Positions 8,038 to 31,647 of a stretch of 32,000 nucleotides of DNA are shown here, one piece after another. The stretch lies in contig NZ_CP013011.1 of assembly GCF_001412615.1 (NCBI RefSeq), positions 1,110,001 through 1,142,000 of the forward strand. Reading direction: 5' to 3'. The DNA is from Pyrodictium delaneyi. GTDB lineage: Archaea > Thermoproteota > Thermoprotei_A > Sulfolobales > Pyrodictiaceae. Under the pieces are notes generated by a model. That model saw only the letters and a program-made list of their open reading frames with translations, was not told the origin of the DNA and did no database searches. Positions within the stretch are counted from its first letter, which is position 1. Each line of letters opens with the position of its first letter. Position numbers and translations under genes: made by a program.

Positions 8038-8040
8038 TGG

Positions 8041-9243: not shown

Positions 9244-9284
9244 CTAGCAGGCCCCAGTTTATCCTTCCTCGCTATAGGGTGTTA

Positions 9285-10853: not shown

Positions 10854-10932
10854 TATGCTGCCTCAAGTATGGTATCGAGTTACATAGAGTTAGAGCAGTA
10901 ATCGAGGCCCCTATTACTCCTGGTGCTAGGAG

Positions 10933-11514
10933 CTATATGCAGACGCCTCGGCTGTGGTGTGCACGAGAATAGACAGCGCATGGCGGCGCAACCATGATTG
11001 CAGCGTAGCCTAGGGAGCGGTGCACACGTACAACCTTAACAAGCACTAGTAAATCGGGATTGTCTAAGTCCACCGGCAGCTCTATACCATCGGCTATAAT
11101 CTCTATCGCATCCCTCTTGTGTAGCAGTCTACCAGTCTCTCTATCATAGAGCCGACCCTCAAGCCTTATTGCGAAACGCGTGCTACGATCTGCCTTAGCG
11201 CTAAGCAGCTCCTTTGCAGTGCTAGCCACATAGTCTACGTATGGAGGCACTTCAAGATCGATGGGTATAGCTCTTAGTATGGCGCTATCCTCTGTAACCT
11301 CTCTCGCTATACGTCTTACAGCGTCATAGGGGTCGCTGACCTTTAGCAGAAGCAGTGAGCGTGGCGCATCAAATACCCTGGCGCGTCCAAGTATGCTCTC
11401 TATCTCGCGTAACGCTCTCCTCATAGAGTAGTAGCCGGGCTCGTGAGCCACTATTAAGTTGAAGAGTCTATAACGTGGCACCTCTTCGGCTCCCATAGTA
11501 CTAGCTCCTCCCAC
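10933..11514 (-). CDS. Small THUMP-domain protein (putative RNA-binding)
   Basis: 193-aa ORF (GTG start; alternative ATG at 11496). 'RFAIRLEGR' followed by 'VDLDNPDLLVLVKVVR' matches the 'VdL.nPd..v.vei' pattern of THUMP domains. Call is from family memory only. Confidence 0.55.
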   Translation of the reverse strand: MGGASTMGAEEVPRYRLFNLIVAHEPGYYSMRRALREIESILGRARVFDAPRSLLLLKVSDPYDAVRRIAREVTEDSAILRAIPIDLEVPPYVDYVASTAKELLSAKADRSTRFAIRLEGRLYDRETGRLLHKRDAIEIIADGIELPVDLDNPDLLVLVKVVRVHRSLGYAAIMVAPPCAVYSRAHHSRGVCI

Positions 11515-11610
11515 GTCGCCGAGAGTATGATGCGCTGACAGCCGGTCACACGCCTAGTGGTAGGGCTATGCCCCTTTTTCTGGGGCTCGGCTCTGCATGG
11601 GGTCTATTGC

Positions 11611-15498: not shown

Positions 15499-16062
15499 GT
15501 GGCGGGGACTAGTATAGATGTACATGTAGAGAAACTACTGATGAAGGCAGATAGACAAGTACTTAGGATATTATCGCCGCGAGCGAGATGCATTATACTA
15601 GCTCTCCGGATGATTAGAATGGAGGGTACAAATATCGAGGAGTTGTTAATGCAAATAGAGAGTTATGGATTTAAATGTAATAAACTGGAAGATGCATTAT
15701 ATATGCTCTCGTATCACGACATTATAGAATGTGACGATAATTTGTGCAGGCTTACTGACGCTGGTATAGAGTTGTCTACGGCCTTACGAGAGTTTCTTGA
15801 GAATATGAGATCTCTGGCATATAACGTGGTGGATGGTGTAGCTACTGAAGATGATATCCTTGCCAGTCTTGTTACAGCATTTGCTAGCACTGTTGGCCTA
15901 ATAGAATCGTATGCTGAGGAGCCCAGTTTAATGCCTCTATATCTATCTCTTCATATGTATATAACTGGATTGAGCACAGCTGTGCTTGCACAACTGGCTA
16001 GGGTGAGTGCCCAAGTTCTCGACACTGTGAAACGTTTCACCGAAGGATATGAAACTGAGTGA
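15499..16062 (+). CDS. Hypothetical protein with an N-terminal winged-helix-like region
   Basis: 187-aa ORF (GTG start; alternative ATG at 15541) in an A/T-rich islet. 'RQVLRILSPRARCIILAL...IEELLMQIESYG...LYMLSYHDIIECDD..CRLTDAGIEL' reads like a MarR/ArsR-type wHTH. The C-terminal half is helical and unassigned. Confidence 0.45.
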   Translation: MAGTSIDVHVEKLLMKADRQVLRILSPRARCIILALRMIRMEGTNIEELLMQIESYGFKCNKLEDALYMLSYHDIIECDDNLCRLTDAGIELSTALREFLENMRSLAYNVVDGVATEDDILASLVTAFASTVGLIESYAEEPSLMPLYLSLHMYITGLSTAVLAQLARVSAQVLDTVKRFTEGYETE

Positions 16063-16242: not shown

Positions 16243-16617
16243 ATGAGCCTAGACCTAAAGGTACTATACGAAGACGAAGAGCTAGTCTTAATGAAGGCAC
16301 CAACAGACGAAGAGTTAGTAGAACTAGTATACAAGTTCATACGTAGTAAGGGACGGCCAGTAACATGGAAAGAACTCCGTGATGCATTCAGCGGTACAGC
16401 TGGCGAGGACAGGCTACGCAAAGCGCTAAGCCGGCTACGCATGCGCGGCGATATAGTAGAGCTGCGTGGAGGAAGGTATGCTACACCTGACATGCCTGGA
16501 GTACTAGAGGAGCTTGAGGAAAGAAGGCGTAGGAGGATGCTCCGCGAAGCTCTCAGTCTCGAATGGAAGCTATATGGACCGCCAAGGCGTAAGAAGAGTG
16601 TAAGGGCAACAAATTAG
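16243..16617 (+). CDS. Hypothetical small protein, winged-helix-like with a basic tail
   Basis: 124 aa, with an ATG preceded by GGGGAG. 'LVELVYKFIRSKGRPVTWKELRDAFSGTAGEDRLRKALSRLRMRGDIVELRGGRY' resembles a wHTH. The C-terminus is Arg/Lys-rich. The antisense 96-aa ORF is a Ser/Arg low-complexity shadow. Confidence 0.5.
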   Translation: MSLDLKVLYEDEELVLMKAPTDEELVELVYKFIRSKGRPVTWKELRDAFSGTAGEDRLRKALSRLRMRGDIVELRGGRYATPDMPGVLEELEERRRRRMLREALSLEWKLYGPPRRKKSVRATN

Positions 16618-19191: not shown

Positions 19192-19518
19192 GTGATGGAA
19201 GAGGTACTCAAAGCGCATATAACAGAGGGGAAAGGGTACATAGACATACAACTCCATGTCAAGCCAGAGGCAGCGTTCACAGGACTCCGTATGGAGGCTG
19301 GAGAGCTTGTATTCTACACGGAGGAACCGCCGGTAGGAGGCCGCGCTAATGCCAGTATTGTACGCTTCTTCTCGAGGCTCTTCGGTATTTCTCCATCGAT
19401 GGTTGATATAGTCTATGGAGCACGTAGCAGAACTAAACGTATACGCGTCAAGGGCGTAACGCTTGAGCAAGCCATGGAGAAGATTATCGAGGCTCTAAGA
19501 GAGGGTGAGAAGAGCTAG
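19192..19518 (+). CDS. DUF167 (YggU/UPF0235) family protein
   Basis: 108 aa. 'GGRANASIVRFFSRLFGISPSMVDIVYGARSRTKRIRVKG' fits the DUF167 signature. The likely start is the ATG at 19195, after GGTGAGG. Confidence 0.7.
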   Translation: MMEEVLKAHITEGKGYIDIQLHVKPEAAFTGLRMEAGELVFYTEEPPVGGRANASIVRFFSRLFGISPSMVDIVYGARSRTKRIRVKGVTLEQAMEKIIEALREGEKS

Positions 19519-21568
19519 AGCCTATATCCTGCGGTTTTTACCCCGCGTTCTAGCCAGGGGGCTACGCGTTTTGCCAGAGCAGCCGTCGAGGAATGTATAC
19601 GAGTCTGCGCCCCAGCGGGTGCTAAGCCGGGTAGTAGCAAGAGTACTCGAACAGCAAGGGGTTGAACTAGGACCCCGGGAGCGCCAAGAAATAGAGTATA
19701 TCGTCGCGGAGTCGCCGCGCCCAGAGCTGGGGGACTATGGAATACCAGCAGCAAGGTATGCTAAACGCTACGGTATAGATCTGGACATCTTCTTCAAGAA
19801 GGCAACTGCCCTGCTGCAGCAAGAGCCCGTAGTCGCCGAGGCTAAACGGGTAGGCGGCTACCTGAACATAACCATAGACGTGGGCTATGCTGCTAAACTT
19901 GTCTTTGAGGCGGTTCGGGCAGAGGGTTTCGAGTATGGTCGTGTGAAGACAGAGAAACCGGAAAGGATAGTAGTTGAGCATACAAGTGCTAACCCTGTAC
20001 ATCCCCTCCATATAGGCCATGCGAGAAACGCGAGCTTGGGTGATTCCCTGGCTAGACTGCTCCGTGCGCGGGGCCACGTAGTGCAGACACGGTTCTACAT
20101 AAACGACATGGGACGTCAAGTAGCGGTGCTAGCTTATGGCTACATAGCTGCGGGGCTGGACAAGCCGCCTAAGGATGTTAAGCCGGATCACTGGATAGGC
20201 CTAGTCTATGCGATAACACATACTTTGTCGGACATAGAGGAATTGAAGAAGCGGCTCGAGCAGTTGAAGCAGGAGGAGAAGTACGAGGAGTACCGCCAGC
20301 TCCTCCGTGAACTCGACGAGCTGGTGGCAACTGCGTCTAGGCTGCGGGAGCGCGACCCAGAGTTGTTCGAGCGAATAGCAGAGGCTCTAAAGGGTAAGGA
20401 TCCGAGCCAAGAGATATCAAAGCTGATGCAGGTCTACGAATACCGCCAAGATCCGGAGAAAGTGGAGCTCGTCCGCAAAGTGGTCCAACTATGCCTCCAG
20501 GGCTTCCGTGAAACGCTCTCAAGGCTCGGCATAGAGATAGAGAAATGGGACTGGGAAAGCGAGCTAGCGTGGACAAGCATGGTATCCAAGATACTTGAGC
20601 AAGCTCGTAGTAGTCCCTATGCCACAGTACACAAGGGCGCGCTCGCCCTAAACCTGCAGCCCCTCCTACGCGACCCCGTGGTCCGGGAGCGTCTAGGCCT
20701 ACCCGAGGATTACGAGATACCACCCCTAATACTCCAGAGGAGTGATGGCACAACACTATACACCACCAGAGACATAGCATACAGTATCAAGAAGTTCCGA
20801 GAGTTCAACGCCGATCGCGTATTCAATGTAATAGCCGCAGAGCAGAGACTAGAACAGCTACAAGTAAGGCTAGCACTCATAGCGCTCGGATACCGCCGTG
20901 AAGGACTAAACATGATACACTATGCCTACGAGATGGTGAACCTCCCCGGCCAGAAGATGAGCGGCCGGCGAGGACGCTACATAACCCTAGACGAGCTAAT
21001 AGACCAAGCAGTAGCTATAGCCCGCCAAGAGGTAGAGAAGCGGAGCCCGGGCCTACCTGAAGAAGAAAAACAGAAGATAGCTGAGGCTGTAGGCACAGCA
21101 GCTGTACGTTACACTCTAGTATCAGTCTCCGCGCCCAAACCTATGACCTTTAACATCAACGAGGCTCTTAACTTCGAGCGCAACAGTGCCCCTTACATAC
21201 TATACACACATGCTCGTGCAGCTAGCATCCTAGCAAAGGCCCGCGAGCGCGGCATACAGCTAGACTGGGACAGGATAGACTACAGTGCCGCCAACGAGAA
21301 CATGCTCCGCCGTAGCCTGGTAATTCAAGCACTAGTCTACCCCTATGTCTTCGCTAAGGCTGCGGACGAGCAGCGCCCAGAACTAATAGTCGCATATCTA
21401 AACCGTCTAGCAGATATCTTCAACAGATGGTATACAAGTGGCGATAGCGTTGTAAACGAACAAGATCAAGGTAAACAGATGTTCAAGTTAGCATTAGTAT
21501 ACGCAGTCAAACAAATACTAGCAAACGCTCTAGACCTGCTAGGCATAAAAGCAATAGACCGGATGTGA
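19505..21568 (+). CDS. argS: Arginyl-tRNA synthetase
   Basis: Has 'HTSANPVHPLHIGHARNA' (HIGH), 'GQKMSGRRG' and a DALR-type C-terminal domain ending in ...DRM. The longest ORF (GTG at 19505) overlaps DUF167 by 14 nt, so the true start may be a little downstream. Confidence 0.95.
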   Translation: MRRARAYILRFLPRVLARGLRVLPEQPSRNVYESAPQRVLSRVVARVLEQQGVELGPRERQEIEYIVAESPRPELGDYGIPAARYAKRYGIDLDIFFKKATALLQQEPVVAEAKRVGGYLNITIDVGYAAKLVFEAVRAEGFEYGRVKTEKPERIVVEHTSANPVHPLHIGHARNASLGDSLARLLRARGHVVQTRFYINDMGRQVAVLAYGYIAAGLDKPPKDVKPDHWIGLVYAITHTLSDIEELKKRLEQLKQEEKYEEYRQLLRELDELVATASRLRERDPELFERIAEALKGKDPSQEISKLMQVYEYRQDPEKVELVRKVVQLCLQGFRETLSRLGIEIEKWDWESELAWTSMVSKILEQARSSPYATVHKGALALNLQPLLRDPVVRERLGLPEDYEIPPLILQRSDGTTLYTTRDIAYSIKKFREFNADRVFNVIAAEQRLEQLQVRLALIALGYRREGLNMIHYAYEMVNLPGQKMSGRRGRYITLDELIDQAVAIARQEVEKRSPGLPEEEKQKIAEAVGTAAVRYTLVSVSAPKPMTFNINEALNFERNSAPYILYTHARAASILAKARERGIQLDWDRIDYSAANENMLRRSLVIQALVYPYVFAKAADEQRPELIVAYLNRLADIFNRWYTSGDSVVNEQDQGKQMFKLALVYAVKQILANALDLLGIKAIDRM

Positions 21569-21606: not shown

Positions 21607-21684
21607 GGGCCCGTAGCCTAGCCAGGATAGGGCGCCGGCCTTCGGAGCCGGTGGTCCGGGGTTCAAATCCCCGCGGGCCCGCCA
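21607..21684 (+). tRNA. tRNA-Arg (anticodon UCG), CCA encoded
   Basis: I folded the cloverleaf by hand. The acceptor stem is GGGCCCG/CGGGCCC and the D stem is GCCT/GGGC. The anticodon stem is CCGGC/GCCGG with loop CTTCGGA, giving anticodon TCG. The variable loop is TGGTC, and the T arm is CGGGG-TTCAAAT-CCCCG. The discriminator is G, followed by CCA. No intron. Confidence 0.9.
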
Positions 21685-21927: not shown

Positions 21928-22614
21928 ATGAAGCGGTTTCTACCTCTAGTTAGTGTATTTGCCCTTATAGTAGTAGGTATAGCGGCACTGCATGCCAGTT
22001 CAATGAGCAATGGTGCACCGCAGCTAAATTGTATTCAGTGCCACGTTGGTGCTGACAAGAACCCAGCTGATTTTGTCGTCGAAGGACTCCCCGACAAGTA
22101 TGAGCCCGGCAAGACATACAAGATAACAATCAAGATAACGAAAGGGCCTGACTGTAGTGGTGGAGTAGCATGTGGCGGTTTTGCGGTGCAAGTGAATGCT
22201 GGCGAGCTCATAGTAACTGATGACAAGAATACATTCATATCTACAACACCTACTGGTGAAAAGCTGCTAACTCATACAAAGGACGGCTCTATGAAACGTG
22301 AATGGTCATTTGAATGGAAGGCTCCTGATACGGCAGAGCCAGTAACGTTCAAGATAGCCGTGATAGCGGCTAACGGAGACGGCAGTTTCAACGGTGATGC
22401 ATACGCAGCTAAGGAGGTAACTGTTGAGCCTGCAGGAGGCCAGGCAGCGCCAACAACTACAACTAAGATAGTTACGGAAACAACGACAACTACAATGGTA
22501 ACTACAACACCGGTTGGTACTACTACCGAGCATAACACAACACTAGCGATTGGCATAGCTATAGTAGTGTTCATCATTGTGGTTGGTGGCTATATACTAC
22601 TGACAAGAAAGTAG
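21928..22614 (+). CDS. Exported monohaem c-type cytochrome-like protein: beta-rich domain, Thr-rich stalk and C-terminal membrane anchor
   Basis: 228 aa with an N-terminal signal peptide ('LPLVSVFALIVVGIAALHA'). The single haem-c motif 'CIQCH' is at nt 22030-22044. A beta-rich region follows ('GGFAVQVNAGEL', 'WSFEWKAP', 'AANGDGSFNGD'). The Thr-rich stretch spans 22453-22543, then a TM helix 'LAIGIAIVVFIIVVGGYILL' and 'TRK'. Confidence 0.65.
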   Translation: MKRFLPLVSVFALIVVGIAALHASSMSNGAPQLNCIQCHVGADKNPADFVVEGLPDKYEPGKTYKITIKITKGPDCSGGVACGGFAVQVNAGELIVTDDKNTFISTTPTGEKLLTHTKDGSMKREWSFEWKAPDTAEPVTFKIAVIAANGDGSFNGDAYAAKEVTVEPAGGQAAPTTTTKIVTETTTTTMVTTTPVGTTTEHNTTLAIGIAIVVFIIVVGGYILLTRK

Positions 22615-22806: not shown

Positions 22807-23856
22807 ATGTTAGGGTGGAGGAAGATCTTGCCGAATGGTAAGAACGATAATGCTGTTGAGATAGTTTGTACGGGTGGACTAGTGTCGGAGAAATGTACAA
22901 GAAGAGTTGAGGTTCAGCTAAGTGAGACAAGTAATGTGATAAACTTAATTGAGAATATTTGGGCGGACGAACCGTCTAAACCAATATTACTTGTGGTTAC
23001 TGCATTTAGCGGTTTTGGAAAGCTTATAAAGGAAATCAGCGAATCGGGAAGCAATCCGTTCCTTATCGAGGCTACTGGGATACCAGAAACTATGTTGTCC
23101 GGCTTACCGCTTGATACTGTAATTGAGTATTGGGCTGGCATGCTTACCGCGACTCTTACTGAGAGGAAAGGCGCAAAGCGGAGAAGCCCACGCGTCTCAC
23201 GTCGTGAAGTCTTGCGTCGACTTTTCCTGATACCTCCTAAATATGTTATGTTGCCTCGATTGCGTTCTGTGGCAGTAAATTGTAGGCGGGACGATGTGTG
23301 TCCATTCTCAGCTCTAGAAGCAGGCAGGTTTGATGAAGACAAATGCCAGGGCTGTATGTTATGTGCTTGGACGTGCCCGGAGGCCGTTGAGGCTCCTCTT
23401 TGGACAGGTCCTTTAGGCCTCCTCTATGCCTACAGATTTATTGATAAATACGGGCTTGATGGTATCCTATTCATATGTCATCATAAGCTCGAACAGTTAG
23501 ACAAATCGGCGGTAGAAGCTAGCCCAGCACGGCTACTCGCATTTCATGTGCCGTGTGTTAGTTGGCTTAGTCCCAGGCTGCTCGAGTCTCTAGTGAGTCT
23601 TGGCATCTACGTACAAGTGTATGCCGACAAAAATGTATGTGAAGAGTGTGGCTTGAAGCCTGCTGGGTTCAAGGCTATTGACATGCTTCGGGTTAATGGT
23701 GTTCATGTTAGTGAAAACTTAGCTGAGGCTGGTGCTGCAGCACTTACAGGATATATAAGACCTAAGAAGAGCCTTGAGGAAGTAATCGAACTAATGACAA
23801 AATCTCTCTACTCTGCTACATCATCGGAGAGTGCGACGAATCGAATTTCGTCGTGA
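22807..23856 (+). CDS. Fe-S protein: internal twin-arginine-like motif, ferredoxin-type Cys motif and an MvhD/FlpD-like C-terminal region
   Basis: 349 aa. 'RRSPRVSRREVLRRLF' is at nt 23179-23226. It is followed by 'NCRRDDVCPF' and a canonical 'CQGCMLCAWTCPE' (23344-23382). 'ILFICHH...RLLAFHVPCVSWLSPRLLESLVSLGIYVQVYADKNVCEEC' loosely follows the MvhD pattern. The N-terminal ~120 aa are unassigned. Confidence 0.55.
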   Translation: MLGWRKILPNGKNDNAVEIVCTGGLVSEKCTRRVEVQLSETSNVINLIENIWADEPSKPILLVVTAFSGFGKLIKEISESGSNPFLIEATGIPETMLSGLPLDTVIEYWAGMLTATLTERKGAKRRSPRVSRREVLRRLFLIPPKYVMLPRLRSVAVNCRRDDVCPFSALEAGRFDEDKCQGCMLCAWTCPEAVEAPLWTGPLGLLYAYRFIDKYGLDGILFICHHKLEQLDKSAVEASPARLLAFHVPCVSWLSPRLLESLVSLGIYVQVYADKNVCEECGLKPAGFKAIDMLRVNGVHVSENLAEAGAAALTGYIRPKKSLEEVIELMTKSLYSATSSESATNRISS

Positions 23857-24781
23857 TACGTATTTCTTCTAGACCTATCTCTCTGAGTGGAAGCAGTTTT
23901 GAGGCTTTACCGACGGCTAGTACACAGTCTTTAACGGGTTCTCCATGGCTACCTTCTTTACAATATACTATGAGTTCTCTGTCTCGTCGGTCAACATGGA
24001 TTATCTGAGGTTCGCCGGGGCCTAAGGTTTCGATCAGAGCTAACATACGTGAGTATTCGTGTTCCATGTTGTTAGCGTAGTCCTGGAGTATGTCTATAGC
24101 TTCTTTGCTATCATCTCCGAGGAGTGTAACTAGATTATCTCTACCTATTGCACTGAGCCTTTTCTCCAACAGCTCCCTTGGAGATCCAGGTCCCTCTACG
24201 AGAAAATGCAGGAGAGCAGCCAGTACTACTTCTTTGTTCGCGCCTAAGTGTGCTAGCCATGATACAGTCTCGCCGTAATGTAATCTGCCGTGACCATATT
24301 CATAGTTTGATGCAAGCGCTATTATCGGTGATAGTTTAGAGGCTCCTCTGGTTACTTGGAGTGACGCATAAAGACCGGTTAATCCTATTAAACCTTGTAT
24401 TGAAGGTCTTAGCTTATTCTTATTATGGTATAGCTGCTCTAATACATTGGTAGCCTCCTTTAGGGCTTCAAGTGGCTTCTTCATGTTGCGATAGACCAAG
24501 TGTGAAGCTAGCGCTAAGAGGCACTGGCTAGGGTTCTTACCACAAACAATTATTGACGGGTCTGAGTCAAGTAGTACAGCTGCTGTATAGAGGCCTACAA
24601 GGTCAGCTCTTTCAGTTATTATGCTCTCCGCGGCGACATCATAGCCTAGAAACACATAGTCCCCATATATGTCTGCATAAAATTCGTCAAATAGTAATAT
24701 TCTTCTACCAGGTTCAAGTATCTCGTCAAGGCCAGGCCCTACTATGAGTATATGATTGTTGTAGTGTGTTGTTCTAGGCAT
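23816..24781 (-). CDS. Hypothetical protein
   Basis: 321 aa with an ATG start. It is divergent from the napA-like gene (200-nt spacer), and its 3' end overlaps the Fe-S gene by 41 nt. No family recognised. 'IIVCGKNPSQC' resembles a phosphatase P-loop but lacks the Arg. Confidence 0.5.
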   Translation of the reverse strand: MPRTTHYNNHILIVGPGLDEILEPGRRILLFDEFYADIYGDYVFLGYDVAAESIITERADLVGLYTAAVLLDSDPSIIVCGKNPSQCLLALASHLVYRNMKKPLEALKEATNVLEQLYHNKNKLRPSIQGLIGLTGLYASLQVTRGASKLSPIIALASNYEYGHGRLHYGETVSWLAHLGANKEVVLAALLHFLVEGPGSPRELLEKRLSAIGRDNLVTLLGDDSKEAIDILQDYANNMEHEYSRMLALIETLGPGEPQIIHVDRRDRELIVYCKEGSHGEPVKDCVLAVGKASKLLPLREIGLEEIRITTKFDSSHSPMM

Positions 24782-24981: not shown

Positions 24982-25206
24982 TTGCCGGATGAGACTCGCA
25001 GGGATGTGCTCAAAGCTATAGCCCTTGGTGCAGCACTAGCTGCTGTAGGTGGAGCAGTCACCTATTATGGTACTGGCAGGGAGAAGACAATATACGAAAC
25101 TGTGACTAAGACACTCACAGAAACGTTGACGAAGACAGTAACCGAGACTGTAGCACCCGCCGAAACTACAACAAAGGCGGAAGAGACTAAGACAGCTAAA
25201 CCCAAG
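24982..25206 (+). other. Twin-arginine signal / possible signal-anchor plus a Thr/Glu/Lys-rich linker of the NapA-like protein
   Basis: 'MPDETRRDVLKAIALGAALAAVGGAVTYYG' is followed by 'TIYETVTKTLTETLTKTVTETVAPAETTTKAEETKTAKPK' (nt 25087-25206). Only then does the first Fe-S Cys appear (C84, nt 25231). Confidence 0.6.
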
Positions 25207-28200
25207 CTGGCGGTAGTCCCTGTAGGCCCCTGCAGGTTCTGTGGAACAGGATGTGGTGTTCAAGCACAAGTAGTGCTCGACCCGGAGACTGGTATGGCTA
25301 AGGATATCATCGCATTAATGGGTATACCTACTTACCCCGTTAACAGAGGTGCTCTCTGTACCAAGGCATTCTATATACACAAGGCTATTGGTCGTGGTGG
25401 AAACAAGGAAGCATTCGAGCAGAGGCTTAAGAGGCCACTTGTAATCAAGGATTGGATAATACCTGGTAAGAATAGGCCGCCAATCACGCCTGAGGAAATA
25501 CCAGAAGCTCCTAGGGTTAAGAATAAGCAGGTAAGCAAGAATGTTGACGCCACAGTGCCTACTGTGGAGCACATAAAGAAGAACTATGTTGAGGTAGACT
25601 GGGATACGGCTGTAAAATTCTTTACCGCTGTATTCAAGTATGCGCTACAGAAATATGGACCTCATAGTTTTGCCTACTACGGCAGCGGCCAGCTAGGTAC
25701 AGAGGAAAGTTATGTAATAAACAAGCTCACGAAGGGTGGTATCCACACTAACAACCTTGACGGAAATCCACGAATGTGTATGGTTAGCGCTGTAGGCGGC
25801 TTCATAACCAGCTTTGGAGCCGACGAACCGGAAGTAAGCTATGATCATATTGATATACCAGAGCCGGATACAGGAACACATGCTGAGACATTCCTGCTAA
25901 TAGGTACCAATACGGCAGAAGCGCATCCAATAGTCTTTGGTCGTATAGCTCAAGTCAAGCAGAAGAATCCAGACAAGATAAAGGTGATTCTAGCTGACCC
26001 ACGTAAGACAAGAAGCGGTAGCATAGCTGATCTATGGCTCCCACTGCGTTGGAGTATGGATGTAGCATTCCTCCATACGCTAGCTCACATAGTGGTATAC
26101 GACCTAGACGGTTGTAAGGTAGACGCTAAAACTGGTAAGGTTGAATGTAAGGGCGAGTACGTGGACATAAAGTGGTTGAAGCGCCATGCTGATTTTGCAA
26201 TACCGACTACTACAGCTAAGACGTGGGCTCTCAAGGAATACAACAATAAGTACAACAATATGGGAGAGTTGAACAGAGTCTGGGACATGGGTACCACAGC
26301 GAGCAGTGCTGCAAACTATAAACTCTATCCAAGTGTTGGTAAGGAGTATAAGAGTGAGGATGAAATAGAGAGGGATTGGTGGAAGGGCTTTGCCCTTTAC
26401 CTAAAGTTCCTCGAGCTGTACAAGCCAGAGATAATGGTAAAGATACTCTTTGGTGACGAAAAGCCGCTGATAAATAGGAAGACTGCAGAACAGCTCATCA
26501 AGGCTGGTGAACTCAGTCCAGAAAAAGTTAACATGGCTGGCAATGAACCGTTTGTCGAAATAGACCCTGTGGAAGCTATGAAGCTTGCTGCAAAGTGGAT
26601 GGCCAAGCAGCGTCTCCTAGTCTTATGGACAATGGGCGTTAACCAGAAGATACAGGGTGTGCATAGTGTAAATGCCATACTGAACTTCCTAGCACTCACT
26701 GGACAAATAGGCAAGTATGGTGCTGGTGCGCTTAGCCTCACTGGCCAGCCTAATGCGTGTGGCGGTATCCGCGACCAAGGCGGTCTGGCACATGTACTAC
26801 CCTATGGTAGACTCATAGCTCTCAAAGCTGCAAGAGAGCAAGTAGAGAACATCTGGAAGAAGCTAACCGAAGACTATCTCAGGGAACGCGGCTTCTCAGC
26901 CGACGCGATAAAGAAGGAGGTTGAAAAGGTCTACATTCATCCCGTGCCAGGTCCACACGTCGTAGAGATGTTCCGCCGTGTAAATGCTGGCCAGCTGAAG
27001 ATAGTCTGGATAGCCGAGACGAACCCAGGTCATAGCTTGCCAAACGTATTCAAGTTCCGTGCTGGTATGGCCAAGCCGCATGACGATGATCCGGCATTCC
27101 CATTCATAGTAGTCCAGGACATATATCCAACAAGAACCACCGACCTGGCTGACCTAATATTCCCGGCAGCTGCATGGGGCGAAGAAGAATTCAAGTACGG
27201 TTGTACAGAGCGTCGCTATAGTGTGGCTAGATACATCATACCGCCACCTGGCGAAGCTGTAGGCGACCACATGATATTCGCCATGATCGGTAAGGCGCTG
27301 GAAGACGAAGGTCTAGTACCTAAGGGTATTGTGAGTGGATTCTTCCCCGAGGACGTAGATAAGGCCGCCAAGGCTGCTGGCAAGAGCTGGGTACAGTACG
27401 TTGTTGAAAAGAGCCGCGACAAGAAGTGGCATGAAGAGTTCCTCAACAGACTATGGGATCGCGACATACTAAGTCTAGCTAAGAATACCTACTACGACTT
27501 CAGCTATGTGAAGCGTGAAATGTTTAGGAAGATGATTAATGGCTTCCGCTGGCCGTGGCCTGAGCAGTACGCTACAAACCCGAGTGTGAAGATGCGTTAC
27601 GACAAGTACGAGGCTGCTAGCAGGTATGCATACCCCTACGATCCATTAATGCCAGATCCCGAAGTGATCAAAAAGATGTACAATGATATAAAGGGTATGA
27701 ATAGTGCTGAGGAAACTGAAGCGTATGTAAAGAAGCTAGATCCCAATGTAGTACATCCGGTACATAAGGCTAAGTGGCTAGGCAAACTATCGCACAATCC
27801 TGTACTTATGAAGTGGGTGCTCAAGCAGATAGTTGAAGAGATAGATGACCAGGCCTACAAGAAGGCGAGTAGAGTACCGGCAGACTGGTACGTAGTCTTC
27901 TATGCTAAGCCAACTGGCAGAATGACCATCTGGGCTAGGCCGTGGCTGCCAGTAATAGTAGACCATGAGAGTGGCGAGATAAAGATCAACAAGGAAGTGA
28001 TAATTACTAAGGAGCAGCTAAGCGTAGATGATGTATTCAAGGGCAAGATATCGGTATTCAGCGAGCCCAAGGGACCATTCAAGATAATTGAGAAGCATAC
28101 TGCAGTGCCTGCCAGCGGCGATCCAGAGAGAGGCTTACAAGTACTTGCAACAAAGACTTGGAGTGAGGCACTAAAGAGCAATTATGGTGACATAGAGGCT

Positions 28201-28740
28201 ATCTTCGAAATAGCGTTAGCACCTGCAGAGGTGCCAGGCTTTGCCGTAAAATACAAACTTGATAACGGTCAAGTGGTAACTGTAAGAGACGCATCAGGCT
28301 ACGAGCTAGTGGCTACTACTGGCCGTGTGGTAGAGCATTGGCACTCTGGCACTATGACAGGTAGGGTGCCAGAACTACGGCGTGTAAAGCCGGCGGCATA
28401 CGTCGAGATACGCAAGGAGCTAGCTGAACAACTAGGTATTAAGGATGGTGACTGGGTGACGGTGGAAAGCCCACGTGGCAAGGTAACAGTCAAAGCGGTA
28501 GTACTGGACCCGAAGACAGGTCTAGGCGGCCCCAGGAAGGACTATGTATTCATACCATGGTTCGATGAAAACAAGCTAGTGAATGCACTAACGCTAGACA
28601 ACTATGATGTACAGCCGTACTTCTTCCAGCCAGACTACAAGACATGTGCTGCTAGGATAAGAAAGGCAACAGCAGACGAAATACCTAAGAGCGAGACTCA
28701 GCAAACCGGCAAGCCCAACTACAGCATAAAGGTTTACTAA
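24982..28740 (+). CDS. napA: NapA-type molybdopterin (bis-MGD) oxidoreductase catalytic subunit: giant, Tat-dependent, probable periplasmic-type nitrate reductase
   Basis: 1252 aa. The TTG start is preceded by AAGGGGG (24967-24973), and the Tat motif is 'TRRDVLK'. Conserved blocks follow bacterial NapA. These are 'GPCRFCGTGCGV', 'YPVNRGALCTKAFY', 'NNLDGNPRMCMVSAVGGFITSFGADEP' (Mo-ligand Cys, codon 25777-25779), 'GTNTAEAHPIVFGRI', 'WTMGVNQKIQGVHSVN', 'SLTGQPNACGG', 'TTGRVVEHWHSGTMTGRVPELRR' and 'FIPWFDENKLVNALTLD'. Confidence 0.85.
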   Translation: MPDETRRDVLKAIALGAALAAVGGAVTYYGTGREKTIYETVTKTLTETLTKTVTETVAPAETTTKAEETKTAKPKLAVVPVGPCRFCGTGCGVQAQVVLDPETGMAKDIIALMGIPTYPVNRGALCTKAFYIHKAIGRGGNKEAFEQRLKRPLVIKDWIIPGKNRPPITPEEIPEAPRVKNKQVSKNVDATVPTVEHIKKNYVEVDWDTAVKFFTAVFKYALQKYGPHSFAYYGSGQLGTEESYVINKLTKGGIHTNNLDGNPRMCMVSAVGGFITSFGADEPEVSYDHIDIPEPDTGTHAETFLLIGTNTAEAHPIVFGRIAQVKQKNPDKIKVILADPRKTRSGSIADLWLPLRWSMDVAFLHTLAHIVVYDLDGCKVDAKTGKVECKGEYVDIKWLKRHADFAIPTTTAKTWALKEYNNKYNNMGELNRVWDMGTTASSAANYKLYPSVGKEYKSEDEIERDWWKGFALYLKFLELYKPEIMVKILFGDEKPLINRKTAEQLIKAGELSPEKVNMAGNEPFVEIDPVEAMKLAAKWMAKQRLLVLWTMGVNQKIQGVHSVNAILNFLALTGQIGKYGAGALSLTGQPNACGGIRDQGGLAHVLPYGRLIALKAAREQVENIWKKLTEDYLRERGFSADAIKKEVEKVYIHPVPGPHVVEMFRRVNAGQLKIVWIAETNPGHSLPNVFKFRAGMAKPHDDDPAFPFIVVQDIYPTRTTDLADLIFPAAAWGEEEFKYGCTERRYSVARYIIPPPGEAVGDHMIFAMIGKALEDEGLVPKGIVSGFFPEDVDKAAKAAGKSWVQYVVEKSRDKKWHEEFLNRLWDRDILSLAKNTYYDFSYVKREMFRKMINGFRWPWPEQYATNPSVKMRYDKYEAASRYAYPYDPLMPDPEVIKKMYNDIKGMNSAEETEAYVKKLDPNVVHPVHKAKWLGKLSHNPVLMKWVLKQIVEEIDDQAYKKASRVPADWYVVFYAKPTGRMTIWARPWLPVIVDHESGEIKINKEVIITKEQLSVDDVFKGKISVFSEPKGPFKIIEKHTAVPASGDPERGLQVLATKTWSEALKSNYGDIEAIFEIALAPAEVPGFAVKYKLDNGQVVTVRDASGYELVATTGRVVEHWHSGTMTGRVPELRRVKPAAYVEIRKELAEQLGIKDGDWVTVESPRGKVTVKAVVLDPKTGLGGPRKDYVFIPWFDENKLVNALTLDNYDVQPYFFQPDYKTCAARIRKATADEIPKSETQQTGKPNYSIKVY

Positions 28741-28765
28741 AATATTTCCATCCAATATTTTTATA
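28739..28765 (+). terminator. A/T-only hairpin plus T-run at the napA-like stop codon
   Basis: AAAATATT (28739-28746) pairs with AATATTTT (28754-28761) around the loop TCCATCC, and runs into T5. An all-A/T stem is of doubtful stability at high temperature; the oligo-T itself may be the signal. Confidence 0.25.
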
Positions 28766-29144
28766 CTAATCTTTAACATTAATTGTTTTCTTGTAGGGCT
28801 ACTATATGCTTTCTTCAATTATCCTATCCTAAAAAGAAAGGCGCGAGAAATATCACTTTATACTCCATAATTATCTCTAGACTAGTCAGTATTGTAGTAT
28901 AGGTGTCTATTGAACTAAAGGAAGCAGATGGCAGTGTACGCAACATGGCATGTAGGGTTTGCCGAAAAATAGCGGTGAAGAGTTATTCGCTATACTCAAG
29001 AGTGCTTGCAACAGGGGGCTGAAGTATCTAGAAGTATGTTCATTAATGGTTTTGTAATAGTTTAGAAAATCGGATTGATTAGTCAGTTACACGCCAAAGG
29101 AACGTAATGGAGATGAGCTAAGTTCACATCCAAGAAGGCAGGTA

Positions 29145-30170
29145 ATGAATTCAAGGAGGAGAACCGAATTGTCTAGGAGATCAGAGAGATGTGGGTTGAC
29201 GCGAAGAGAATTCCTTCAAGCAGGCATACTGGTGGCGGCGGCTGCAGCGGTTTCTACTCCTAGGCTTGTTGCGGGTTTCGAGGCACCGCCGAGTCTAGAT
29301 AATAACGATTCATACTATGAACCATTTCTCCTTGAAGGTGATGAGGATCGTATAGCCTACTATGAAGCACTAGGCTTTGTAGTTGAAGAAAACGGTAAGA
29401 AGTGTGTTGCGAATCCATTACTTCCTAATAAGTGTATGGTTTATACTAAACCATATAGGGATGATAGATTTCCTCTCCTTCCACCAGGTGCAACGGAGGA
29501 CTTCTACAGGCGGTGTATACGTTGTGGTCTCTGCTACTTTGCGTGTAGCTACATGGGTTACCATGCCATACGTTTGGCGAGTTTGCGTGAGGGCCTCCAT
29601 AAACTTGGTAGCCCCGCTGTCGACAATATGATTACATACCCGTGTACACTTTGTATGGAGTGCACCAAGGTTTGTCCTACTGGTGCGCTAAAAGAGATAC
29701 CTAAGGAAGACGTGAAGATGGGCATAGCTTTGATAGATCCAGATCTCTGTTGGGCATGGAATAGTGGAGACTGTAAGAGCTGCGCTAAGGCTTGTCCCTT
29801 TGGCTCTGAGGTCTTTGAATTTACGTTCAATGAGTGGGGCGTGCATACAAGGGTCAACGCGGATAAGTGTAAGGGCTGTGGCCTATGTGTTCCGGCTTGT
29901 CCTATAGGCGGTTCGGCAATACATGTGCTCCCATTGGATGAATATGAACGAAGGATACGGAATTACAAGAATACGGGTATGAGTTATGATGACTACTTAA
30001 GGTTGATACTAGAGACAGAGCGGAATGACCCCTTCAAGGCCACTTGGAGGGCGGCTATAAACACAGATTATATTCAGAATGTGAGGGGAATCGAGGAAGA
30101 GAAAATAGCTACAGAACTAGGTGCAAGTGACATCAATGTAACTTCTGTGAGGAGGCATAAGGGGGATTAG
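29145..30170 (+). CDS. napG: NapG-like Tat-exported poly-ferredoxin (four [4Fe-4S] motifs)
   Basis: 341 aa with Tat motif 'LTRREFLQAG' and the NapG-type 'LLPPGATEDFYRRCIRCGLCYFAC'. Further cluster motifs are 'CTLCMECTKVCP', 'CWAWNSGDCKSCAKACP' and 'CKGCGLCVPACP'. Confidence 0.8.
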   Translation: MNSRRRTELSRRSERCGLTRREFLQAGILVAAAAAVSTPRLVAGFEAPPSLDNNDSYYEPFLLEGDEDRIAYYEALGFVVEENGKKCVANPLLPNKCMVYTKPYRDDRFPLLPPGATEDFYRRCIRCGLCYFACSYMGYHAIRLASLREGLHKLGSPAVDNMITYPCTLCMECTKVCPTGALKEIPKEDVKMGIALIDPDLCWAWNSGDCKSCAKACPFGSEVFEFTFNEWGVHTRVNADKCKGCGLCVPACPIGGSAIHVLPLDEYERRIRNYKNTGMSYDDYLRLILETERNDPFKATWRAAINTDYIQNVRGIEEEKIATELGASDINVTSVRRHKGD

Positions 30171-30191
30171 ACGCAACGTGAGAGGTGGGCA

Positions 30192-31124
30192 TTGATGCCT
30201 CCACGTAGTAAGCTTGGTCGTAAGCTCTGGCTCAGCATACGTGGTATACCGCCTCGCGGCAAATATACCATAGCAAGAAGATTGTTGCAGGTAATAGTGC
30301 TTGGCCTCTTTGCTACGCAAATGTTGGTATCAGGGGCAATTATAGAAGGAAGTCTTGCCTCAAGCAGGGTCTTCCGAGCAATACCTATGATGGATTTATT
30401 AGCCTGGCTAGAACAAGCAGCAGCAACTCATAGCCCAACAATAGAGTCTGTTATTGCGGTACTAGTGGTATTTGCACTGTATAGTGTACTAGGCCGCTTC
30501 TTTTGCGGCTGGGTCTGCCCGATGGATCTCATCTTCAGTTTATTTGAGCGTAAGTTGTCAAGCACGAGGGCGCCACCGCTTACAAGGCCTCACCGTGCTG
30601 GTCTCGTCGAAAAAATCGTACCGCTAATAATGGTGATCGTGTATCTTGGGTTGTCGGTAGTGCTGGGTCAGCCATTCTTTACAACCATATCGCCAGTAGC
30701 AGGTGCCACGAAGCTAGGCTCGGTGCTGGTTGGTGTATTATACAACATACCCGGCGCCACAATAGGTCTGGCAATGGCGTGGGCCACGGTTACGGGCTTT
30801 GCGCTCATAGTGAACATAATTGCAGAGTATGTGTTCGGGATAAAGAGGTTCTGGTGTAGGTTCGTCTGCCCAATAGGTAATATATATGGGTACGTGATGA
30901 ATCGCTACAGCCCGCTCCGTGTAAAGGTCATAAACAGGGAGAAGTGTCTTGGCTGCAACCTCTGTAGCATCTCTTGCCCTGTAAGCATAGATCTTCTAGA
31001 ATATATACATGCAGGAAAGGATGTGATAGACTATAGATGCTTCCATTGTGGCCGTTGCGTCGAGGTATGTCCGCATGGTGTGCTAAAGTTTGGCTTCCGC
31101 TTCGGAAAAACACGTAGAACCTAA
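30192..31124 (+). CDS. napH: NapH-like integral-membrane Fe-S quinol dehydrogenase subunit
   Basis: 310 aa with several hydrophobic helices. It carries the two NapH/MauN-type CxxCP motifs, 'RFFCGWVCPMDL' and 'RFWCRFVCPIGN'. Two C-terminal ferredoxin motifs are also present, 'CLGCNLCSISCP' and 'CFHCGRCVEVCP'. The ATG at 30195 after GAGGTGGG is the likely start. It lies 21 nt after napG. Confidence 0.8.
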   Translation: MMPPRSKLGRKLWLSIRGIPPRGKYTIARRLLQVIVLGLFATQMLVSGAIIEGSLASSRVFRAIPMMDLLAWLEQAAATHSPTIESVIAVLVVFALYSVLGRFFCGWVCPMDLIFSLFERKLSSTRAPPLTRPHRAGLVEKIVPLIMVIVYLGLSVVLGQPFFTTISPVAGATKLGSVLVGVLYNIPGATIGLAMAWATVTGFALIVNIIAEYVFGIKRFWCRFVCPIGNIYGYVMNRYSPLRVKVINREKCLGCNLCSISCPVSIDLLEYIHAGKDVIDYRCFHCGRCVEVCPHGVLKFGFRFGKTRRT

Positions 31125-31156
31125 ATATTAGAACTTAGAACGTAAATATCAGAAAC
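31115..31156. repeat. Imperfect 21-bp tandem duplication spanning the napH stop codon
   Basis: TAGAACCTAAATATTAGAACT (31115-31135) is followed directly by TAGAACGTAAATATCAGAAAC (31136-31156). They match at 17 of 21 positions. The stop TAA is at 31122-31124. Confidence 0.6.
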
Positions 31157-31272
31157 AATAGTATCTCTTACACCAGATATGTTTTAGACTCTCTACACCG
31201 TAAAAGAACGCTACATACCGTATAAGGGGCCAGTCGTGCATGTGTGTAAGTAGGAGTAGGCAGAGCTAGAAG

Positions 31273-31647
31273 GTGAGTGTTGCTTTGGCATTCGCTGCAG
31301 GCTTCTTCCTCATAGCTCCTCACTATCGAGAGGAACCCAAGAGAAGTGAAGTAAAACGACATCTAGAAGGTCTTGGCTTCGAACTTTACGAGGTGAATAA
31401 GTCGTCATTTATTGTCTTCTACATCGAAGCGCCTAGCCCTAAGGCTCTGGAAGACGTTATCAAAACTGCAGAACAACATGATGGTGTTGCAAAAGCCTAT
31501 ATAGCATTCGGCTTCATGGGAGACAATAGTGTTAAGGAATGGATTAATGATGCGCTAGCTAGGGGTGAGCTAGAGTTGGATCAGTCCACGAAAGACTACA
31601 TACGCGGCATACTGGCAAGGATAGCGCCCAATAGGGCTACAACATAG
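31273..31647 (+). CDS. Hypothetical small protein; possible NapD-like Tat-proofreading chaperone with a C-terminal extension
   Basis: 124 aa with a GTG start after GGAG-rich sequence. 'GFFLIAPHY..EVKRHLEGLGFELYEVNKSSFIVFYIEAPSPKALEDVIKTAEQHDGVAKAYIAFGF' has the beta-alpha-beta-beta-alpha-beta periodicity. It also has the 'hVVhEA....L...I..h....GV....hVY'-like pattern I associate with NapD. Position is directly after napGH. Confidence 0.4.
   Translation: MSVALAFAAGFFLIAPHYREEPKRSEVKRHLEGLGFELYEVNKSSFIVFYIEAPSPKALEDVIKTAEQHDGVAKAYIAFGFMGDNSVKEWINDALARGELELDQSTKDYIRGILARIAPNRATT

Follow-up and report, generated by a model that had tools for sequence, protein, structure and literature searches.

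The Nap-type gene cluster of Pyrodictium delaneyi belongs to a cross-domain long-NapA clade and includes an exported CxxCH protein that may be its redox partner

Gene content of the cluster

The window (the whole 32,000-nt stretch of P. delaneyi DNA that was analyzed) carries a Nap-type nitrate reductase gene cluster that has already been published for P. delaneyi itself. Proteins encoded by the ORFs of the window match P. delaneyi proteins exactly (Pyrde_1152-1155; X is 100% identical to Pyrde_1151), and the whole cluster corresponds to Pyrde_1151-1157:

21928 to 22614, plus strand: X (Pyrde_1151), an exported Reeler-fold/"choice-of-anchor V" protein
22807 to 23856, plus strand: F-like protein (Pyrde_1152) of 349 aa, in which a single 4Fe-4S ferredoxin motif is clear
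23816 to 24781, minus strand: Y (Pyrde_1153), 321 aa, cytoplasmic, divergently transcribed relative to napA
24982 to 28740, plus strand: long NapA (Pyrde_1154), TTG start, 1252 aa, identified from profile, structure-sequence and motif evidence
28741 to 29144, no strand: napA-napG spacer, 404 nt, 36% G+C, AT-rich
29145 to 30170, plus strand: NapG-like ferredoxin (Pyrde_1155), 341 aa, Tat-exported, with four [4Fe-4S] motifs
30192 to 31124, plus strand: NapH-like protein (Pyrde_1156), 310 aa, by homology a membrane quinol-dehydrogenase subunit
31273 to 31647, plus strand: NapD-like protein (Pyrde_1157), a divergent NapD, 124 aa

A 2017 paper on P. delaneyi strain Hulk, a strain able to grow on nitrate, named the cluster "NapADFGH," and a Nap-like operon had already been noted in Ignicoccus hospitalis in 2008 (Podar et al., PMC2614490). 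The first-pass annotation had described this locus as a crenarchaeal A-G-H module of the Nap type, outward-facing and without NapB or NapC. That much stands, and every feature that it listed is present where it was placed; the novelty that it implied does not. It had named the prior description of identical archaeal operons as grounds for refutation, and the reports on P. delaneyi and Ignicoccus largely supply this. The finding as first stated therefore adds little, since it rediscovers a published annotation of the same organism. The region that it delimited ended at 31647, taking in a fourth ORF (31273-31647) left undescribed there; also missed were NapD as such, Pyrde_1153, protein X and the ~435 inserted residues of the long-NapA clade.

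The catalytic subunit opens with a Tat signal/anchor (residues 1 to 27; TIGR01409, 17.8 against a cutoff of 16.7) bearing the twin-arginine motif TRRDVLK at residues 5 to 11, followed by a T/E/K-rich linker (residues ~30 to 80), and it includes a C-terminal MGD-binding domain. All of the NapA blocks reported earlier were located: the Fe-S motif CRFCGTGC (residues 84 to 91; cluster cysteines Cys84, Cys87, Cys91 and, as the fourth, Cys126), the Mo-ligand stretch PRMCMVSAVGGF (residues 263 to 274, including Cys266-Met267), SLTGQPNACGG (ACGGIRDQ being residues 592 to 599) and GRVVEHWHSGTMTGRVPEL (residues 1114 to 1132). The Pfam domains Molybdop_Fe4S4, Molybdopterin and Molydop_binding each scored above gathering score, and the protein thus combines the twin-arginine signal, four-Cys [4Fe-4S] motif and Mo/W-bisMGD domains of a NapA. 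Relative to NapA proteins of ~775 aa, it carries insertions of ~435 residues.

Profile searches, which had been proposed as a check, returned NapA, NapG and NapH as the best families, all below curated cutoffs. For the catalytic subunit, the NapA match (E = 4.6e-113) is far beyond chance and NapA is the best profile (379 bits, compared to 297 for Fdh-alpha and 235 for NasC); the DMSO-reductase type II profile gave only 21.6 bits. With NapA still the best match, the equivalog cutoffs of NF010055 and TIGR01706 were missed (379/904 and 360/931 bits, respectively). The nitrate-induced NapA of D. alkaliphilus likewise misses the NapA cutoff (422/904 bits); the long clade as a whole therefore falls below the curated cutoffs, and the low scores reflect the clade. 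Among solved structures, the best match was the monomeric NapA of D. desulfuricans (401 bits, sequence E = 9.5e-119), followed by NapAB-type NapA (~272 bits) and FdhF (193 bits). In a phmmer alignment to 2JIO, six of six D. desulfuricans residues that, from established NapA structures, line the active site (Cys140, Met141, Asp155, Glu156, Met308, Arg354) were identical here (C266, M267, D281, E282, M551 and R597 in Pyrde_1154 numbering).

The A/T-rich spacer that follows napA has exactly the length first given, and its G+C content is 36%, compared to ~45 to 49% in the flanking genes. It had no Rfam match and no terminator-like site, and its longest ORFs are at most 40 aa. The spacer is probably non-coding and possibly harbors an internal promoter; a separate napG promoter would be consistent with a published proteome in which NapA is very abundant while NapG and NapH are barely or not detected. 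Beyond the spacer, the NapG-like protein has the expected architecture of Tat export (twin-arginine TRREFLQ), an LLPPGA motif, four Cys-cluster motifs (at 124, 167, 202 and 242) and an adjacent napH. Its best NCBIfam match is NapG (E = 3.3e-27), with 95 bits where the cutoff is 269 (70 against 179 for the MauM/NapG subfamily), and D. alkaliphilus NapG scores similarly low on the NapG profile (89/269 bits). The NapH-like protein has four to five hydrophobic/transmembrane segments, the two CxxCP motifs described earlier (CGWVCP and CRFVCP) and two C-terminal [4Fe-4S] ferredoxin motifs (at 252 and 283), as is typical of NapH. It matches NapH best over nearly the full model (E = 4.4e-44; 151 against a cutoff of 234, and 143 against 213 for the NapH/MauN subfamily), compared to 133/234 bits for D. 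alkaliphilus NapH, and it passes Pfam Fer4_5 (44.5 against 22). The Tat motifs on both NapA and NapG bear out an outward-facing module. When all six frames of the window were scanned for CxxCH-type motifs, no ORF had two or more, in agreement with the reported absence of NapB and NapC; one credible single-motif ORF came up, at 21928-22614, the rest being short antisense or alternative-frame ORFs.

Pyrde_1157 matches Pfam NapD at E = 0.0044, under the gathering score, as do all eight of eight archaeal orthologs, weakly. Compared with NapD of bacterial long-Nap operons it gave an hhalign probability of 95.5% (E = 1.4e-8), which places it with NapD; judging from sequence, it is likely a Tat-proofreading chaperone for NapA. 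In the published proteome its abundance on nitrate exceeded that on ferrihydrite (log2FC -2.85, padj 3.7e-4). The F-like ORF is probably the gene published as "NapF." Its matches are to generic Fer4 only, its exact P. delaneyi match is annotated "ferredoxin," and among the loci compared it is kept in Pyrodictium-type clusters only; in the published proteome it was detected at a low level. NapF is expected to be a cytoplasmic protein of ~160 aa with several [4Fe-4S] motifs; the label is not supported for Pyrde_1152, which at 349 aa and with one motif gave no TIGR00402 match at E ≤ 0.01. Protein Y, to which annotation gives no function, had no Pfam or NCBIfam match; its homologs number only 24, each annotated "hypothetical" and each from a Pyrodictiaceae-type archaeon. 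It accompanies NapA in archaeal loci and adjoins it even in Ignicoccus islandicus, whose NapA-like gene has no neighboring G or H. Its AF2 model (pLDDT 93) weakly matches a PTP fold in the N-terminal half, C80, C87, C274 and C286 are invariant, and Y was seen in nitrate-grown cells only (padj 3.8e-8, published proteome). A possible role is that of a maturation factor.

A long-NapA clade shared by archaea and bacteria

The P. delaneyi catalytic subunit falls into a "long NapA" clade that spans both domains and includes Desulfurivibrio, Nitrospirota and Kryptonia. In a neighbor-joining tree with one unrelated MopB protein as sole outgroup and with Fdh and Nas sequences not included, archaeal and bacterial long NapA formed one clade in 60/60 bootstraps, which joined the ~775-aa NapA proteins in 56/60; canonical NapA came next, lying outside the long clade with ~35% identity on shared columns. 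In published trees, the sister sequences from bacteria fall within Nap. Thorup et al. (2017, PMC5516251) described the napAGHD operon of D. alkaliphilus and D. dismutans as encoding a "novel type of NapA" and reported that what donates electrons to it was unknown; relatives occur in Nitrospirota and Ca. Kryptonia. In this bacterial sister clade napAGHD is nitrate-induced and NapA is upregulated on nitrate in the proteome, and genes for NrfA or octaheme cytochromes adjoin long napA in five of six loci.

Desulfurivibrio-type NapA is ~40% identical to P. delaneyi NapA over 92 to 99% of the length and has most of the ~435 inserted residues. Its operon likewise runs A-G-H-D with an X gene and without NapB or NapC, and its proteins return near-identical sub-threshold profile scores; the arrangement, which also occurs in Nitrospirota and Kryptonia, is no archaeal peculiarity. 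In contrast to this type, archaeal NapA has ~113 extra residues, including a 30- to 50-aa linker after an apparently uncleaved Tat signal, archaeal X has a Thr-rich stalk and transmembrane anchor whereas bacterial X looks soluble, and the archaeal forms of NapG (341 aa) and of the NapD-like protein (124 aa) exceed their bacterial counterparts (~255 and ~85 aa) in length. Archaeal clusters also add Y and, in Pyrodictium, the F-like gene. Closer to P. delaneyi are the NapA-like proteins of Ignicoccus, an archaeal relative with 69 to 71% identity to P. delaneyi NapA. The I. hospitalis operon (Igni1377-1380) was read as acquired from bacteria, in a host not found to respire nitrate (Podar et al. 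2008, PMC2614490); in I. islandicus, G and H are not adjacent to the NapA-like gene.

Of the characterized enzymes, the monomeric NapA of D. desulfuricans ATCC 27774 (PDB 2NAP/2JIO), the best structure match, works without NapB, and its system shares NapG, NapH and NapD with the P. delaneyi cluster as well as the six active-site residues. It is, however, a soluble periplasmic protein of 723 residues, compared to 1252 for the apparently membrane-tethered P. delaneyi NapA, and its operon, napCMADGH, has the tetraheme proteins NapC and NapM, neither of which is found in the P. delaneyi cluster. In Wolinella and Campylobacter (napAGHBFLD), NapGH replaces NapC as menaquinol dehydrogenase; as in P. 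delaneyi, NapGH is the sole quinol-oxidizing candidate, but these bacteria keep the diheme NapB, absent from the P. delaneyi cluster, which feeds electrons directly into a canonically sized NapA. Pyrobaculum aerophilum and haloarchaeal pNar are cell-surface nitrate reductases that, like P. delaneyi Nap, are outward-facing and Tat-dependent, but they belong to another MopB branch with NarG/NarH-type subunits.

Protein X beside long NapA

Protein X comprises a signal peptide, which would export it to the same compartment as NapA, a single CxxCH (residues 35 to 39, nt 22030 to 22044), a Thr-rich stalk and a C-terminal transmembrane anchor. It scores 105 bits on NCBIfam choice_anch_V (cutoff 42) and matches Pfam Reeler. 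Residues C35, C38, H39 and H116 are invariant in 40/40 aligned homologs, and His116 is a candidate distal His. The AF2 model is a Reeler/YcnI-like beta-sandwich (pLDDT 86) whose best Foldseek match is the F-spondin reeler domain; the nearest structures are a copper-binding protein and adhesion domains, with no cytochrome among the structural matches.

In D. alkaliphilus, the ORF immediately 5' of long napA shares 36% identity with X (E = 3e-31), and X lies directly upstream of napA in six of six bacterial long-NapA loci from several phyla. It is also co-located with NapA in Pyrodictiaceae-type archaeal clusters, with two genes between X and napA in the P. delaneyi window; in three archaeal loci (L003, L014, L019) it was not found within the flanks examined. 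All six shorter-NapA loci lacked X and carried di- or tetraheme cytochromes instead, so that X and NapB-like diheme genes were mutually exclusive in the loci compared; control loci of canonical NapA had a diheme ORF in 4/4 and a tetraheme ORF in 3/4 cases. CxxCH is present in 21 of the 23 members of the Nap-linked subfamily. Across 5,633 cluster representatives of the wider family, most have C-x-C-H, which is not a canonical heme c site, and heme binding by X is therefore unproven. X was detected in the published proteome at an abundance unchanged with nitrate. With a conserved, exported protein of invariant CxxCH belonging to the cluster, the earlier description of the chain as "cytochrome-poor" may be wrong, and X may be a redox partner of NapA in place of NapB.

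Substrate and electron path

We consider it likely that the region encodes a dissimilatory, outward-facing Nap-type nitrate reductase system (Pyrde_1151-1157) of the long-NapA clade. Homology, motifs and a conserved neighborhood point to this, together with published nitrate growth, enzyme activity and proteome, and from these we infer nitrate as the substrate of Pyrde_1154. In 2021, NapA was reported in the P. delaneyi proteome and nitrate reductase activity in its extracts (798 nmol/min/mg in crude extract), with NapA highly abundant and no different between nitrate- and ferrihydrite-grown cells. Such equal abundance would also suit a long NapA-like enzyme whose main substrate is not nitrate, or which serves as a general outward electron sink, its likeness to Nap being a matter of ancestry. 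Other points in its favor are the ~435 inserted residues, which might reshape the substrate funnel, Fdh-alpha as runner-up among the profiles, NapA scores under curated cutoffs, and homologous operons in Ignicoccus, which does not respire nitrate. We judge this alternative improbable, however, as the NapA-type active site is kept in full, with Cys-Met where formate dehydrogenases have Sec/Cys-His, and a NapD homolog lies in the cluster. P. delaneyi reduces nitrate, as does Pyrolobus fumarii. In the bacterial sister clade the genes are induced by nitrate and frequently lie beside nrfA, formate dehydrogenase activity was not detected in nitrate-grown extracts, and the genome description names Nap as the nitrate-reducing system identified in P. 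delaneyi. Counted against nitrate reductase were the sub-cutoff core scores, the flat NapA abundance, the Ignicoccus hosts and a crude-extract activity not assigned genetically. The first-pass caution that nitrate is not the proven substrate is fair, since relatives such as Ignicoccus have the operon but do not respire nitrate.

In the nitrate reductase that we favor, quinol would be oxidized by membrane-embedded NapH, which would pass electrons on to NapG, a four-cluster ferredoxin exported via Tat to the outside, and from there, directly or via the membrane-tethered CxxCH protein X, to the [4Fe-4S] cluster of NapA. Within NapA, electrons would reach Mo-bisMGD, where nitrate would be reduced to nitrite, and NapD would chaperone NapA for Tat export. 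The apparently uncleaved Tat signal and Thr/Glu/Lys-rich stalk of NapA, and the C-terminal anchor and Thr-rich stalk of X, could act as tethers: the cell has no outer membrane, and they would hold the "periplasmic" system at its surface.

How electrons would leave NapG is where two versions of this path part. We speculate that the donor missing from the long-NapA clade is X, which would be a new kind of redox protein with a single cofactor, either heme c on a beta-sandwich or another Cys/His center, replacing the diheme NapB, with the inserted NapA residues forming a docking surface; this role is possible but rather doubtful. Against this step we counted the fold without a cytochrome match, C-x-C-H in the wider family, the two-gene gap and the flat abundance. 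A true nitrate reductase in which NapG would reduce monomeric NapA directly, X being no redox partner but a surface or metal-binding, assembly or structural neighbor, has in our estimate not quite an even chance. The Reeler/YcnI-like fold and its copper-binding and adhesion relatives favor it, as do the prevalence of C-x-C-H, the lack of nitrate regulation of X and the archaeal loci where X was not found. It fits less well with the position of X directly 5' of napA in all bacterial long-NapA loci, exclusive of diheme genes, with a CxxCH and candidate distal His kept in the Nap-linked and aligned homologs, and with export of X and NapA to one compartment in an organism that makes c-type cytochromes.

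For the published cluster, the gene roles are corrected: NapD holds up as an assignment, "NapF" does not, and two conserved genes nearby had gone unnoticed. The cross-domain lineage is compatible with the transfer from bacteria that was suggested earlier, and after such a transfer membrane tethers on NapA and X would represent an adjustment to the lack of an outer membrane. X is a concrete, testable donor candidate for a nitrate reductase without NapB and NapC, an enzyme found in sulfide-oxidizing, nitrate-ammonifying bacteria as well as hyperthermophilic archaea. If X is the donor, it would answer the question raised for D. alkaliphilus in 2017 and some members of a functionally uncharacterized family of more than 5,000 clusters would gain a first function.

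Gene content of the nap region

The first-pass annotation described an archaeal NapA-NapG-NapH module, and its identification of the three open reading frames (ORFs) stands: all three lie where it placed them, every motif quoted for them is found in the sequences, and their profile matches are far above chance (NapA E = 4.6e-113, NapH 4.4e-44, NapG 3.3e-27). It did not mention a fourth ORF within the same interval (31273-31647) and also missed two upstream genes, here called X and Y, and a long-NapA clade that spans both domains. The NapA-like protein is Pyrde_1154 by exact-sequence match (ALL01202.1; identical in strain Hulk, OWJ55719.1), exact matches identify neighboring proteins as Pyrde_1152, Pyrde_1153, and Pyrde_1155 of Pyrodictium delaneyi, and the ORF encoding X is 100% identical to Pyrde_1151. 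The region comprises the following features.

21928-22614: protein X (Pyrde_1151)
22807-23856, + strand: F-like protein (Pyrde_1152), 349 aa
23816-24781, - strand: protein Y (Pyrde_1153), 321 aa
24982-28740: NapA-like catalytic subunit, 1252 aa
28741-29144: spacer between napA and napG
29145-30170: NapG-like protein, 341 aa
30192-31124: NapH-like protein, 310 aa
31273-31647: NapD-like protein

A six-frame scan of the 32 kb returned zero ORFs with two or more CxxCH motifs, and a NapB-like or NapC-like gene is therefore absent from the window, as claimed. The spacer, described as A/T-rich and 404 nt long, measures exactly 404 nt at 36% G+C. It had no Rfam match, contained no ORF longer than 40 aa that might be a hidden gene, and showed no terminator-like or sigma-70-like site in a scan that does not cover archaeal promoters. 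The idea of a hidden gene or RNA was dropped, and we take the spacer as plain intergenic DNA. A separate napGHD promoter may lie within it, which would fit a very abundant NapA alongside NapG and NapH that are barely or not detected.

The implied novelty of the operon did not hold: archaeal operons of this kind had largely been described before, and this one partly characterized. Demey et al. 2017 (PMC5556600) reported "NapADFGH" and growth on nitrate for P. delaneyi strain Hulk. A 2021 study of nitrate- and ferrihydrite-grown cells detected NapA in the P. delaneyi proteome, with no difference in abundance between the two conditions, and measured a nitrate reductase activity of 798 nmol/min/mg in extracts. 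In Ignicoccus hospitalis, Podar et al. 2008 (PMC2614490) described a four-gene Nap-like operon of probable bacterial origin, although this host does not respire nitrate. Published work on P. delaneyi covers the operon, proteome detection of NapA, and the activity of crude extracts.

Housekeeping genes occupy the remainder of the window (Rad50/Mre11/HerA, glutamine synthetase, CysRS, and ArgRS with tRNA-Arg after it). The DNA repair cluster (5287-12762, - strand) comprises Rad50 (5287-8037), an Mre11-like phosphoesterase (8041-9243), and HerA helicase (9285-10853); next come an ORF without a family match (10933-11514), which may encode NurA, and a gene for a radical-SAM protein. Between 15000 and 18000, G+C content is low (42 to 44%, against ~50% elsewhere) and GC skew is strongly positive; two ORFs without a Pfam match (15499-16062 and 16243-16617) adjoin an S-adenosylmethionine decarboxylase gene. 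The arginyl-tRNA synthetase gene (19505-21568) is followed after ~40 nt by tRNA-Arg (TCG; 21607-21684). In two of the bacterial loci fetched for comparison (L026 and L027), the nrfA-X-napA cluster likewise has an ArgRS gene upstream, probably by coincidence.

A long NapA shared by archaea and bacteria

The catalytic subunit matched the NapA profile best (379 bits, against a curated cutoff of 904), followed by those of the formate dehydrogenase alpha subunit (297) and NasC (235). Among solved structures, its best match was the monomeric NapA of Desulfovibrio desulfuricans (401 bits), ahead of NapAB-type NapA (~272) and FdhF (193). In alignment with the D. desulfuricans enzyme, the residues lining the active site (Cys140, Met141, Asp155, Glu156, Met308, and Arg354) are all kept, as C266, M267, D281, E282, M551, and R597. 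The first two of these positions hold Sec/Cys-His in formate dehydrogenases and Cys-Met in the window protein, which argues against a formate dehydrogenase; that identity was rejected on the active-site residues and the relative profile and structure scores.

Compared with NapA proteins of ~775 aa, the window protein carries ~435 extra residues at roughly 14 insertion sites, of which only ~113 are absent from a bacterial group of ~1100 aa. This group (Desulfurivibrio alkaliphilus, Nitrospirota/Thermodesulfovibrionales, Dissulfurispiraceae, and "Ca. Kryptonia") shares ~40% identity with it over 92 to 99% of the length. In a neighbor-joining tree, archaeal and bacterial long NapA formed one clade in 60/60 bootstraps and joined the ~775-aa NapA in 56/60, with canonical NapA further out. 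Because formate dehydrogenase and Nas sequences are not part of this tree, the position in the superfamily is taken from profile scores, active-site residues, and trees in the literature. A NapA scan of the genome collection returned almost only close archaeal relatives, and bacterial loci were therefore fetched one by one.

Thorup et al. 2017 (PMC5516251) called the D. alkaliphilus enzyme "a novel type of NapA," encoded in a nitrate-induced napAGHD operon without napB, and stated that "its electron donor is unknown." Against curated profiles, NapA, NapG, and NapH of D. alkaliphilus score 422/904, 89/269, and 133/234 bits, close to the window proteins. The subthreshold scores are therefore a property of the clade and no sign of different archaeal genes.

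Genomic neighbors tie the bacterial members of the clade to respiratory nitrate reduction. Genes for NrfA-type or octaheme cytochromes lie beside the operon in five of six bacterial long-NapA loci. The electron-input modules downstream of the operon vary: in the Kryptonia locus (L025, 11224-14438), it is followed by Rieske, cytochrome b, and octaheme cytochrome genes, and in L028 (8437-11742) by a NiFe hydrogenase with cytochrome b. In the Dissulfurispiraceae locus (L026, 9456-11816), genes for ResB (cytochrome c biogenesis) and for a rotamase separate napA from napG. On the archaeal side, the X-Y-napAGH cluster of Pyrolobus fumarii has beside it a gene (L001, 3219-5798, - strand) for a protein of 859 aa that contains eight CxxCH motifs and gives coiled-coil-like Pfam matches. 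Pyrolobus is reported to reduce nitrate to ammonium, and this protein could therefore be part of that pathway.

Accessory proteins and a putative electron path

Several features bear on how such an enzyme might work. NapA and NapG both carry Tat motifs, NapG has four Fe-S motifs, and NapH combines four to five transmembrane segments with a pair of CxxCP motifs and a pair of Fe-S motifs; a NapD homolog is encoded alongside, and NapA and X both show tether-like features. By analogy with bacterial NapGH, NapH would oxidize quinol and NapG would carry the electrons outside the membrane to NapA, either directly or via X, where nitrate would be reduced to nitrite. In archaeal NapA, a linker of 30 to 50 aa separates the Fe-S domain from the hydrophobic part of the Tat signal; in Pyrodictium and Pyrolobus this linker is enriched in Thr, Glu, and Lys, and bacterial long NapA has no such linker. 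This difference suggests that archaeal NapA retains an uncleaved signal anchor and a stalk, an arrangement that would suit a cell lacking an outer membrane.

Judged by its sequence, the ORF at 31273-31647 is a divergent NapD: profile-profile comparison with NapD of the bacterial long-Nap operons gave 95.5% probability (E = 1.4e-8), and Pfam NapD was matched weakly by 8/8 archaeal orthologs. From the locus-tag pattern, the F-like protein is probably the published "NapF"; it did not match the NapF profile, has one clear 4Fe-4S ferredoxin motif, and is conserved in Pyrodictium-type clusters only. At its 3' end, the gene shares 41 nt with the convergently transcribed Y gene.

Protein Y matched no family, and its 24 homologs are all hypothetical proteins of Pyrodictiaceae-type archaea, with none elsewhere. 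Its gene is transcribed divergently from napA and keeps its place beside the NapA-like gene in Ignicoccus islandicus too, although napG and napH are not adjacent there. The AlphaFold2 model of Y is confident (pLDDT 93), and four cysteines are invariant. A fold search weakly matched the protein tyrosine phosphatase (PTP) fold over the N-terminal half only (E = 2.6e-3); the C-X5-R signature is absent, and a phosphatase or sulfurtransferase role found no support. Y might serve as a maturation factor for NapA. Supplementary tables of the 2021 study list Y for nitrate-grown cells only (padj 3.8e-8) and show a higher abundance of the NapD-like protein on nitrate (log2FC -2.85, padj 3.7e-4); X and the F-like protein are also listed, neither changing significantly. 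None of the four is mentioned in its main text.

Protein X as a candidate electron donor

Sequence and predicted structure show a signal peptide, a beta-sandwich domain, and one CxxCH motif in X, along with a stalk rich in Thr and a C-terminal transmembrane anchor. It matches the NCBIfam family "choice-of-anchor V" (105 bits, cutoff 42) and Pfam Reeler. In D. alkaliphilus, an ortholog (36% identity, E = 3e-31) is encoded directly upstream of the long napA, and the same position is occupied, with one CxxCH each, in the other five bacterial long-NapA loci, which span several phyla. Among archaea, X lies within the cluster in Pyrodictium-type loci and Pyrolobus and directly upstream of napA in a Hyperthermus metagenome-assembled genome; at some archaeal loci it was not found within the fetched flanks. 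Control loci lack X, in support of specificity: two encoding ~775-aa NapA have a 2-heme or 4-heme cytochrome directly downstream of napA, and four encoding canonical NapA have a diheme ORF (4/4) and a tetraheme ORF (3/4). Taxa matching X parallel those matching long NapA, and more than 20 cluster pairs of the two agree in the length of their longest contig, a proxy for a shared contig. Co-location, control loci, and parallel taxa together make X a candidate replacement for NapB. That X donates electrons to the NapB-less long NapA enzymes is a tentative hypothesis that we consider somewhat unlikely.

The nature of its conserved site bears on this role. C35, C38, H39, and H116 are invariant among 40 homologs. 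A fold search matched reeler domains and YcnI, which binds copper, with no cytochrome among the matches, and a sequence-profile search of the PDB gave nonsignificant matches only (a spondin reeler domain at E = 0.018; short alignments between the CxxCH region and heme sites of cytochromes at E = 0.02 to 0.15). An exhaustive profile search recovered 5,633 family representatives at 50% identity clustering, with a Nap-linked top group of 23. Family members beyond this group mostly have G-C-x-C-H at the motif, with CxxCH in 27/127, which weakens the case for a classical cytochrome c. C38 and H39 (127/127) and H116 (115/127) persist there, W126 and W130 are still conserved, and this pattern of residues suggests that the site may hold something other than heme c. 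The abundance of X in the published proteome was not nitrate regulated.

Across the wider family, an invariant Cys-His pair is accompanied by an upstream Cys at variable spacing (mostly C-x-C-H); one His, within an LTHT-like motif, and a pair of Trp are conserved as well. No literature was found on "choice-of-anchor V" or on "Reelin domain" with NapA; coverage was incomplete, so the link may have been reported. The conserved residues point to an uncharacterized metal or cofactor site in the large choice-of-anchor V/Reeler-like family of surface proteins. For the long-NapA enzymes, the remaining value of the finding is X as a candidate for the donor reported as unknown.
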